From Waddliaceae bacterium (GTDB lineage Bacteria > Chlamydiota > Chlamydiia > Chlamydiales > Waddliaceae): 64,000 bases of DNA. Numbering within the stretch: the stretch's first letter is position 1; every line of letters starts with the position of its first letter. Shown here one piece after another: positions 16-2,058 of the stretch. Below the pieces are notes generated by a model, which was not told the origin of the DNA, ran no database searches, and worked only from the letters and a program-made list of their open reading frames with translations. Made by a program: the position numbers and the translations under genes. Where the stretch lies: assembly GCA_963724325.1 (NCBI GenBank), contig CAVRUH010000005.1, forward strand, positions 32,001 through 96,000. The letters run 5' to 3'.

Positions 16-308
16 TGCGGCCTGCTGTCTCTGACATTGTGGCCTGCTGTCTCCGACAGCAGACGTCCGGCTCTCGGAGAGAGCCGGCCACAAGTGGCCT
101 GCTGTCTCCGACAGCAGACGTCCGGCTCTCGGAGAGAGCCGGCCCAAGTGGCCTGCTGTCTCCGACAGCAGACGTCCGGCTCTCGGAGAGAGCCGGCCAC
201 AAGTGGCCTGCTGTCTCCGACAGCAGACGTCCGGCTCTCGGAGAGAGCCGGCCACAAGTGGTCTGCTGTCTCCGACAGCAGACGTCCGGCTCTCGGAGAG
301 AGCCGGCC
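16..308. repeat. Left part of a 55-bp GC-rich tandem array of double-hairpin (REP-like) units
   Basis: Unit GTGGCCTGCTGTCTCCGACAGCAGACGTCCGGCTCTCGGAGAGAGCCGGCCACAA starts at 39, 94, 148, 203 and 258; the last copy is cut at 308. A degenerate partial copy lies at 16-37. Confidence 0.97.
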
Positions 309-1794
309 CTCAAGTTTGGCGGTTTCTCATATTTTTGAGAAAAAACTTTCAAAAAAAAGAGAAGACACATAATATTTTTGTTTTTCACGCAAATGAGGAC
401 AAAAAAATATGTGCCTTCTCGAAACTTTTCTATCACTAGTCTCCCTATGGAGACCAGCATTTTGTAAACAAGACACCTTTAGAAGAGTCAAAGATCACGC
501 TGTCGCGACTGTTTGCTCCTTGGGACGCCATACGATCACAAATCTTATCATTTGGCTTGGAAAAGATCAATTAGATCCTACAGCCGATTATAGATTATAC
601 AATGAATATAAGTGGAATGTCGAGGATCTTTTTAACCCTTTATTGGAAAAGGCAATGCCGTTTTTTGGAGATGATTATGTTGTTGTTGGAGCCGACGACA
701 CTCGTATTCGCAAAAGAGGAAAGAAGATCCCTGGAACATCTTGGGGAAGGGATCCATTATCACCCCCATTTCAAGTTAATTTAATGTGGGGGCAAAGATT
801 TCTTCAATTTTCATTTCTACTTCCTATGTACAATCATTCATCAGTCAGTGCACGAGCATTGCCTATAAGATTTATTCATACTCCTCCTTTAACAAAACCT
901 GGTAAAAGAGCAAATGCAGCAGAAATATTAACATACAAGAAATTATGTAAGACTCAAAATTTATCGACTCGGTATATAGAAGAGGTAAGAAAATTGAGGG
1001 AGCATTTAGATGCAATAGGGTGTACAAAAAAACAACTTATGGTCACTGACGGTAGTTTCTGTAATAGAATTTGCATGAATTTAAACATGCCAGGAGTTGA
1101 AGCACTAGCACGCGCCAGAAAGAATTCAAAACTATGTTATCGGGCTGAAGGCAATGGTAGACGCACATATGGGGTTAATAAATTCACTCCAGAGCAAGTA
1201 CGTCAAGATGATAGTATACCATGGCAGTCTGCAATTTTCTTTTATGGTGGTGAATGGAGAAGAATAAGATTTAAAGTATTGCGAGATGTATTATGGCAAT
1301 CTGGCACAAAGACTAGACCGATGAGATTATTAGTCGTAGCACCGTTGCCTTATGTGAAAAATGGGATTAGAAATTACCGCCAACCCGCCTATCTATTAAC
1401 AACTGATCTCGAGGCCACAGCAGAATTCCTTCTTCAGAGTTATTTAGACAGATGGCAGATAGAAGTAAACTTCAGAGAGGAAAAATCTGTATTGGGTGTT
1501 GGAGAGGCCCAAGTATGGAGTGAAAAGTCAGCTGAAAGACAGCCATCATTTAGGGTTGCAGTATATAGTGCCTTATTATTGTCTAGCATTCTGAAATACA
1601 AGGATGTGCCACCAATTGATGAAGAGATTCCGAAATGGAGAGACAAGCCACAAAGAAATACCTGTAGAGCATTAATAGGGATGATTAGAAGTGAAACTCT
1701 AGAAAATATAGAAAGTATAATAGATTTAGAATTAACTAGGCCGATGTTATCGGCAATTTTTCGAAAAGCAGCCTAAAAAACCGCCAAACTTGAG
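309..1794 (+). mobile_element. Insertion sequence, about 1486 bp, IS701/IS4-like DDE type
   Basis: Perfect 17-bp terminal inverted repeats CTCAAGTTTGGCGGTTT (309-325) and AAACCGCCAAACTTGAG (1778-1794) enclose a single transposase ORF. Flanking direct repeat at 284-308 and 1795-1819. Confidence 0.93.
409..1776 (+). CDS. DDE transposase (IS701/IS4-like, DDE_5-type)
   Basis: 455 aa with motifs ADDT, TDGSF and YLDRWQIEVNFREEK (YREK-type). The ORF fills the space between the IRs. Confidence 0.92.
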   Translation: MCLLETFLSLVSLWRPAFCKQDTFRRVKDHAVATVCSLGRHTITNLIIWLGKDQLDPTADYRLYNEYKWNVEDLFNPLLEKAMPFFGDDYVVVGADDTRIRKRGKKIPGTSWGRDPLSPPFQVNLMWGQRFLQFSFLLPMYNHSSVSARALPIRFIHTPPLTKPGKRANAAEILTYKKLCKTQNLSTRYIEEVRKLREHLDAIGCTKKQLMVTDGSFCNRICMNLNMPGVEALARARKNSKLCYRAEGNGRRTYGVNKFTPEQVRQDDSIPWQSAIFFYGGEWRRIRFKVLRDVLWQSGTKTRPMRLLVVAPLPYVKNGIRNYRQPAYLLTTDLEATAEFLLQSYLDRWQIEVNFREEKSVLGVGEAQVWSEKSAERQPSFRVAVYSALLLSSILKYKDVPPIDEEIPKWRDKPQRNTCRALIGMIRSETLENIESIIDLELTRPMLSAIFRKAA

Positions 1795-2058
1795 GTCCGG
1801 CTCTCGGAGAGAGCCGGCCACAAGTGGTCTGCTGTCTCCGACAGCAGACGTCCGGCTCTCGGAGAGAGCCGGCCACAAGTGGTCTGCTGTCTCCGACAGC
1901 AGACGTCCGGCTCTCGGAGAGAGCCGGCCACAAGGCCTGCTGTCTCCGACAGCAGACGTCCGGCTCTCGGAGAGAGCCGGCCACAAGTGGCCTGCTGTCT
2001 CCGACAGCAGACGTCCGGCTCTCGGAGAGAGCCGGCCACAAGTGGACAGCAACCACAA
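1795..2058. repeat. Right part of the 55-bp double-hairpin tandem array
   Basis: Half unit 1795-1823, full units starting at 1824, 1879, 1934 (2 nt short) and 1987, degenerate tail 2042-2058. Confidence 0.97.

Follow-up and report, generated by a model that had tools for sequence, protein, structure and literature searches.

Whole-hairpin target duplication by an insertion sequence with a predicted Tn5-like transposase in a Waddliaceae bacterium

The element, its insertion site and its genomic copies

The 64,000-nucleotide stretch of DNA analysed here (the window) comes from a Waddliaceae bacterium (assembly GCA_963724325.1, contig CAVRUH010000005.1, positions 32,001 to 96,000 of the forward strand), and near its start lies an insertion sequence (IS) with a copy of the same small hairpin on either side. 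The element (309-1794, + strand) measures 1,486 bp, is bounded by perfect 17-bp terminal inverted repeats (TIRs; 309-325 on the + strand, starting CTCAAG, and 1778-1794 on the - strand), and holds a single open reading frame (ORF; 409-1776, + strand) encoding a transposase of 455 aa. The bases that flank it (284-308 and 1795-1819) are one identical 25-mer, in which a 21-bp hairpin with a 9-bp stem and a GGA loop (286-306 in the left copy, 1797-1817 in the right) lies centrally, with 2 nt on each side. An initial annotation of this DNA had described a 25-bp direct repeat that brackets the hairpin symmetrically, and both parts of that description are borne out. Its other reading, a 23-bp duplication with 18-bp inverted repeats, is wrong, because the base outside the TIR differs among the eight full genomic copies, which share the same TIR limits, and the boundary of the element is thereby fixed.

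The insertion divides an array that resembles bacterial interspersed mosaic elements (BIMEs; left part 39-308, right part 1795-2045). Each 55-bp unit contains two hairpins in alternating orientation, and each hairpin begins GTGG on its own strand, an arrangement that fits repetitive extragenic palindromes (REPs) organised as BIMEs according to the definition in PMC2817692. No Rfam family was matched within window positions 1-2200, which sets the array apart from known RNA and CRISPR repeat families, and promoter and terminator scans gave signals at chance level only. Beyond the 25-mer, the flanks of the element are identical over 80 bp too; the warning that, inside a tandem array, such a duplication cannot be told apart from a deletion by recombination was therefore fair at this locus.

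Genome-wide, however, that warning falls, since hairpin duplications were found at nine sites in two unrelated repeat families. The 2.37-Mb assembly contains eight full copies of the element (99.87-100% identity) and one remnant of 29-31 bp, and all nine sites show a duplicated hairpin, centred on its axis, of 22-27 bp (eight exact, one with a mismatch). The duplications measure 25, 23, 23, 23, 23 (one mismatch) and 27 bp at sites of the GTGG-type family and 22, 22 and 22 bp in the second family. For the 22-bp sites, paralogues with a single hairpin exist in the genome (50, 4 and 61 hits), and at C1:772305 several of them match the reconstructed empty site over 82 nt without a difference (100% identity). 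In a nested pair (C1:958314-961310), a hairpin already duplicated at 23 bp by the earlier copy was used again by the later one, which duplicated 27 bp of it. The 27-bp duplication (C1:959825) reaches 2 bp into the end of the earlier element, the terminal G of which lengthens the stem by one pair, and this nested event excludes recombination or deletion between array units as its source.

On another view the true duplication is short, and the long repeat arose artefactually when a tandem array recombined or was mis-assembled; this view can draw on the window locus with its flanks matching over 25 and 80 bp. Against it stand the same footprint in other copies and in dozens of relatives at unrelated sites, as well as contigs from public runs with junctions that match other genomic copies, and we give it practically no credence; the non-array and nested copies refute it. 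Contigs of four public runs contain no joint across the element, and the loose contig ends that match junctions of other copies may stem from the source sample.

Two further arrangements were observed among these copies. Three copies share one repeat cluster (C1:956645-961310), where the third sits in the duplication left by the second, and a 1-bp insertion breaks the ORF of the first. In the remnant (C1:879427-879457), nothing but the opening 29-31 bp of the element is left between two 22-bp hairpin copies; the rest was likely lost by internal deletion across a short stretch of homology, TTGAG.

The genome also encodes a RAYT-like Y1 transposase (C5:207304-207846, equivalent to L081:1327-1869, - strand; NF047646 79.3 bits, cut-off 80), whose gene adjoins five tandem hairpin units akin to the second target family. 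A host REP-binding protein such as this one might recruit the transposase or keep the hairpin extruded, a proposal to which the gene with its own repeat array, the location of all nine own-genome sites in two repeat families and the GT(A/G)G foot of 24 of 54 targets (pooled below) lend some colour. The other 30 targets lack that foot, and unrelated hairpins are used across several phyla, making a host protein of this kind a highly improbable determinant.

Hairpins at the ends of related elements

Relatives of the element were studied in species genomes, where 256 loci were confirmed and the best 80, with 41-53% identity, were used. They are mostly from Acidobacteriota, with others from Thermodesulfobacteriota, Verrucomicrobiota, Nitrospirota and further groups. 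A generic scan for TIRs and target duplications near the ORF was unhelpful here because of an upstream accessory gene, and ends were located by searching for the TIR motif (cognate TIRs: CTGGAGTTT). When an end was scored as abutting a hairpin if a stem of at least 6 bp had its foot within 3 nt (flank at least 45 nt), 115 of 126 ends qualified, as against 407 of 25,035 control positions (1.6%); two of the 11 misses are internal left ends picked in the composite loci described below. The best 80 of 582 metagenome loci gave 112 of 119 ends, compared with 180 of 9,054 control positions (2.0%), in what is a near-repeat only of the first analysis (slightly wider TIR pattern, 30-nt minimum flank, control range of 80-330 nt). 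In a sister group, about 42% identical to these relatives, both ends were found in 18 of 19 loci; 31 of 36 ends lie at hairpins, and 11 of 18 loci show duplications. The clade takes in 4,237 of 7,997 scored database proteins; 551 clusters at 50% identity were counted with E values admitted up to 1e-30, a figure that possibly includes relatives that do not use hairpins.

A small upstream gene is usual in the relatives, and HARE-HTH winged-helix matches were obtained for 3 of 3 scanned, one of them above the cut-off. Different small upstream genes occur among relatives (L002-L073; L131, L142, L148), and the window element is without any, so that the hairpin footprint does not depend on an accessory gene.

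Pooling all sites with two located ends gave 86 (9 from the genome itself, 59 from relatives and 18 from the sister group), of which 54 carry a duplication of at least 10 bp. These duplications range from 13 to 32 bp and are exact in 46 of 54 cases. Stems of 5 bp or longer occur in 52 of them, 49 of which have an axis offset of 0. Insertion in hairpins, with a duplication length that tracks hairpin length, was what the initial annotation had predicted for other copies and homologs, and this is what we find (Pearson r 0.79, Spearman 0.70, 52 sites). Within single elements the correlation persists (r 0.71, permutation p 0.003, 8 groups, 34 sites), a statistic that is overstated because kin elements and paralogous repeats are not independent sites. 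A single element in genome G062 illustrates the relationship on one and the same core, where an 8-bp stem yielded 21 bp (L132) and a 13-bp stem 27 bp (L134). Agreement in parity between the lengths follows from how the axis is defined and is unused as evidence. In 38 of 52 cases the distance between cut and stem foot is 0 or +1 nt. The footprint is thus one of structure-linked targeting, with an axis-centred duplication of variable length.

Apart from GC richness, the targets share no sequence consensus: the 54 targets comprise 51 distinct sequences, and no base exceeds 53% at any of eight positions. Perhaps a transposase oligomer recognises the palindrome as B-form DNA and makes symmetrical cuts some 10 bp to each side of the axis, with some slack, as the clustering of 39 of 52 duplications at 20-23 bp might suggest. 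Such an enzyme would find no sequence consensus to read, however, and single elements span 22-27 bp and 18-27 bp; four hairpins of 25-30 bp gave duplications of 25-32 bp and never about 21; and the range of 13-32 bp turns the scissile bonds through more than one helical turn. We regard symmetrical reading of B-form DNA as distinctly improbable.

Several relatives have unusual structures around their ends. Three copies from G065 (L012, L018, L020) are 2.6-kb composites with an extra outer element end, in which the first 740-760 bp contain, flanked by long inverted hairpin repeats, an IS200/IS605-type TnpA gene (NF033573 56.3, cut-off 55), followed by a variable hairpin piece of 0-26 nt and then the normal element; the DDE element may mobilise its passenger Y1 transposase. 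At five other loci (L046, L079, L217, L234, L239), another element end or end-like motif lies directly beside the target hairpin, which suggests that hairpins left by earlier insertions are used again.

The transposase and its place among known families

The predicted structure of the transposase (predicted local distance difference test score 89) has an RNase H fold like that of Tn5 transposase, which was its top structural match (Foldseek E 4e-10, template-modelling score 0.55) and to which a VIA alignment fitted 369 residues (Z 23.4, root-mean-square deviation 4.0). No sequence match was found in the PDB. The residues D96, D214, E352, Y345 and K359 are invariant in 118 of 118 aligned homologues, and R348 is present in 104 of 118. 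Y345, R348, E352 and K359 follow the spacing of the IS4-type YREK motif, Y-(2)-R-(3)-E-(6)-K.

Profile hidden Markov models (HMMs) place the protein near IS701, but not inside it. Pfam DDE_5 (PF13546) passes narrowly (28.1, cut-off 27), and the best NCBIfam match, IS701_3 (NF049999; 137.4 bits, E 6e-40), stays under its cut-off of 170, as do seven of eight hairpin-type relatives scanned (range 96-183 bits), with one sister element above it (183.1). The IS701 model NF033540 scores 41.3 against a cut-off of 150, the IS4 models 28-32 bits against cut-offs of 115-250, and no IS30 or IS1182 model appears among the Pfam and NCBIfam hits down to E 0.1. In size, single ORF, TIRs and DDE_5 match, the element agrees with the IS701 criterion (1,400-1,550 bp), and it departs from that family in its HMM score, in having no fixed 4-bp duplication and in its complete YREK. 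Under the IS4 definition of De Palmenaer (2008), the DDE residues and complete YREK agree, and the 7-13-bp duplication and an HMM score above the cut-off are absent. IS701 elements have 4-bp duplications and mostly lack the YREK tyrosine, and IS4 duplications measure 7-13 bp (PMC2266710). The element is a divergent offshoot beside the NF049999 IS701 group and falls under neither definition. Its predicted fold and full YREK are shared with IS4/Tn5 (IS50), from which it differs in HMM score and duplication size, and its 5'-CT ends are common to the IS10, IS50 and ISPepr1 subgroups (PMC2266710).

The closest contrast is provided by the NF049999 group itself, which has the same size class and TIR type (CT-G/C-R-N-Y/K-TTT) as the window element. 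Its core members (253-348 bits) are 22-26% identical to the protein and, where their ends are clear, leave 5-bp duplications away from hairpins, whereas the window clade duplicates the whole hairpin. Of 14 outgroup copies examined, namely 12 of the 13 on one plasmid plus 2 from another, 13 have 5-bp duplications, and hairpins adjoin 0 of 28 ends. In a tree of 27 rows, a long branch (100/100) separates 21 hairpin-type rows from 6 others, with a midpoint root and a warning of long-branch effects. A 9-residue basic-aromatic insert (about residues 314-323), predicted to form a beta-hairpin, is found in all 21 hairpin-type rows and in 0 of the 6 others; with only two clades and a single contrast, it is a candidate determinant only.

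A similar footprint has been described in another family. IS1630 of Mycoplasma fermentans, a member of the IS30 family, has the same footprint in the same size range (Calcutt, Lavrrar and Wise 1999, PMID 10601219), with 27-bp TIRs and an IS30 transposase in place of the 17-bp TIRs and predicted Tn5-like fold seen here. The window element works like IS1630, yet is not an IS30 element, and the likeness is likely convergent. IS1272/TnSha1, of the IS1182 family, deletes the stem-loop and leaves no duplication (PMC5678879; Furi et al. 2016, PMC4923244). IS1272 has an IS1182 transposase, to whose models the window protein has no match. ISfinder reviews are said to report that some IS1182 members duplicate entire stem-loops. 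Other systems likewise insert in hairpins or REPs: the REP-targeting elements ISPsy8, ISPa11, ISPpu9/10 and ISRm22 duplicate 0-6 bp at a fixed REP position (PMC1525189), and in RAG transposition into cruciforms it is the hairpin tip that is attacked (PMC1618415). The window clade is unlike both in inserting at the foot and duplicating the whole hairpin. The accessible part of a 2026 survey (PMC13548323) contains no passage on IS701 or palindromes, and our literature search, which lay outside subscription reviews and ISfinder, where a member of the clade may already be listed, found no account of hairpin duplication by IS701/IS4-like elements or by this Tn5-fold clade.

How a whole hairpin could be duplicated

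A DDE transposase would be expected to leave a short duplication, of a length set by how far apart its two active sites lie. The 3' ends of the element are each joined to one target strand, and the duplication results when the 5' stagger is repaired; by this chemistry, duplication of a whole hairpin implies that both strands were attacked, each at the palindrome's 5' foot. We postulate, with a probability of roughly 65%, that strand transfer takes place at the two 5' feet of a cruciform and that this explains the whole-hairpin duplications. In a four-way junction the two 5' feet would be diagonal neighbours at a distance independent of arm length, so an ordinary pair of DDE active sites could yield a stagger of 13-32 bp, the attack falling mostly 0-1 nt outside the stem; in B-DNA, the same bonds would lie 13-32 bp apart at varying angles. 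An attack at the 5' feet of a cruciform has been drawn before (pathway b) as a route to stem-loop duplication (Wan et al. 2017, PMC5678879).

The extruded cruciform is our preferred candidate for the physical target, although genomes read the same for hairpins on transiently single-stranded DNA. At forks or in transcription bubbles, a pair of hairpins, or a hairpin and its unpaired partner strand, could be attacked at the same 5' feet without any supercoil-driven cruciform. Stems that are mostly 7-10 bp and GC-rich would suit such a substrate, as would the GNA loop, a stable type of single-strand hairpin, on one strand in 18 of 27 odd-length targets. Yet the orientation of the element is unbiased relative to the loop strand (GNA 10, TNC 8, other 9), and the symmetric ends in 49 of 52 sites need both strands held together, so we consider the single-stranded route unlikely, if worth keeping in view.

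In a further possibility, a short-stagger nick or insertion at the hairpin foot is extended to the whole hairpin by host repair (strand displacement, template switching or hairpin cleavage). The outgroup stagger of 5 bp and one sister insertion of 7 bp would be in keeping with this, and some duplicates look like signs of repair on hairpins. At L032, L034, L143 and L145 the right duplicate ends just past the loop, as if the hairpin had been cut at its tip (L143 and L145 have a common downstream flank, and mis-assembly is possible). The two copies carried by one complete chromosome, L048 and L051, have flanking hairpins of 42 and 24 bp with the loop inverted; one hairpin copy is a perfected palindrome, swapping the two copies does not explain the difference, and the pattern suggests something like template switching. 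Such loop-truncated or loop-flipped duplicates would, however, also fit gap-filling across a folded strand after attack on a cruciform, and the symmetry of the 46 of 54 exact duplications, with both ends at the foot, would be unexpected from repair, which makes this route improbable.

A number of observations weigh against attack on a cruciform as the general explanation. All nine own-genome sites are confined to two hairpin-rich repeat families. Among hairpins whose stem is 9 bp or longer, these families account for 143 of 307, and for 131 of 178 when GC is 50% or more (duplicated copies counted in both figures); with the GT(A/G)G foot of 24 of 54 targets, this makes a targeting bias beyond pure structure possible. 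Sites are not independent, the cut position varies from -2 to +3 nt relative to the stem, and a stem of 7-10 bp is short for a cruciform to extrude spontaneously. The search for an orthologous empty allele was negative, three related genomes matching the downstream gene only, or nothing. At 32 of 86 two-ended sites the flanks are unmatched, mostly as two different hairpins, and metagenome contigs show matching flanks at only 9 of 44 two-ended loci, one of the nine fitting inverted flanks better. Reciprocal flank swaps were recognised between L141 and L146 and between L133 and L139, and the left flank of L060 matches the right flank of L058; the remaining unmatched flanks we tentatively ascribe to recombination between copies or to chimeric assembly. 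Un-swapping L133/L139 (G062) gives one 21-bp hairpin duplication and one 7-bp duplication without a hairpin (L139 left, L133 right), so the hairpin preference is not absolute, and the 7-bp duplication is perhaps the default stagger in duplex DNA. Short fixed duplications at non-palindromic sites, which the initial annotation had set against its own idea of cruciform targeting, are not seen generally, apart from this one inferred sister site.

If a cruciform is indeed the target, the enzyme may help to extrude short stems (7-13 bp) or trap them, and the clade-specific basic-aromatic beta-hairpin of the predicted structure might contact the junction; both suggestions are weaker than that of attack at the two feet. 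REP-like repeats are probably frequent targets as the most abundant strong hairpins in neutral DNA. It is tempting to speculate further that a lineage with the Tn5 fold exchanged its fixed 5-bp stagger for a mode of reading junctions, extruding or trapping short palindromes and attacking diagonal strands in the manner of a Holliday-junction resolvase, by means of the 9-residue beta-hairpin that its 5-bp outgroup lacks. We hold this fuller scenario to be possible but doubtful. Were it true, insertion sites would chart the places where DNA forms cruciforms in vivo, and a hairpin of any design would act as a landing pad whose footprint depends on the length of its stem.

The origin of long, variable duplications has so far been a sketch, for IS1630 and in the pathway-b drawing for IS1272. 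Both the cruciform model and the protein determinant become testable with a large clade, a one-gene member that has recently multiplied, natural targets by the dozen and, for comparison, a close outgroup whose duplications are 5 bp long. The footprint also bears on whether short REP palindromes are extruded in vivo and offers one way for REP arrays to gain hairpins. Standard IS annotation, which seeks short duplications, would place the boundaries of such elements wrongly.

Elsewhere in the window, about 140 bp beyond the array, the ORFs at 2184-9103 resemble, judging from their translations, what we take to be a kdpA-B-C-D potassium-pump operon. Tandem repeats of 164 bp and 184 bp occupy positions 48414-49253 and 53213-53657, respectively, and have a palindromic core in common.

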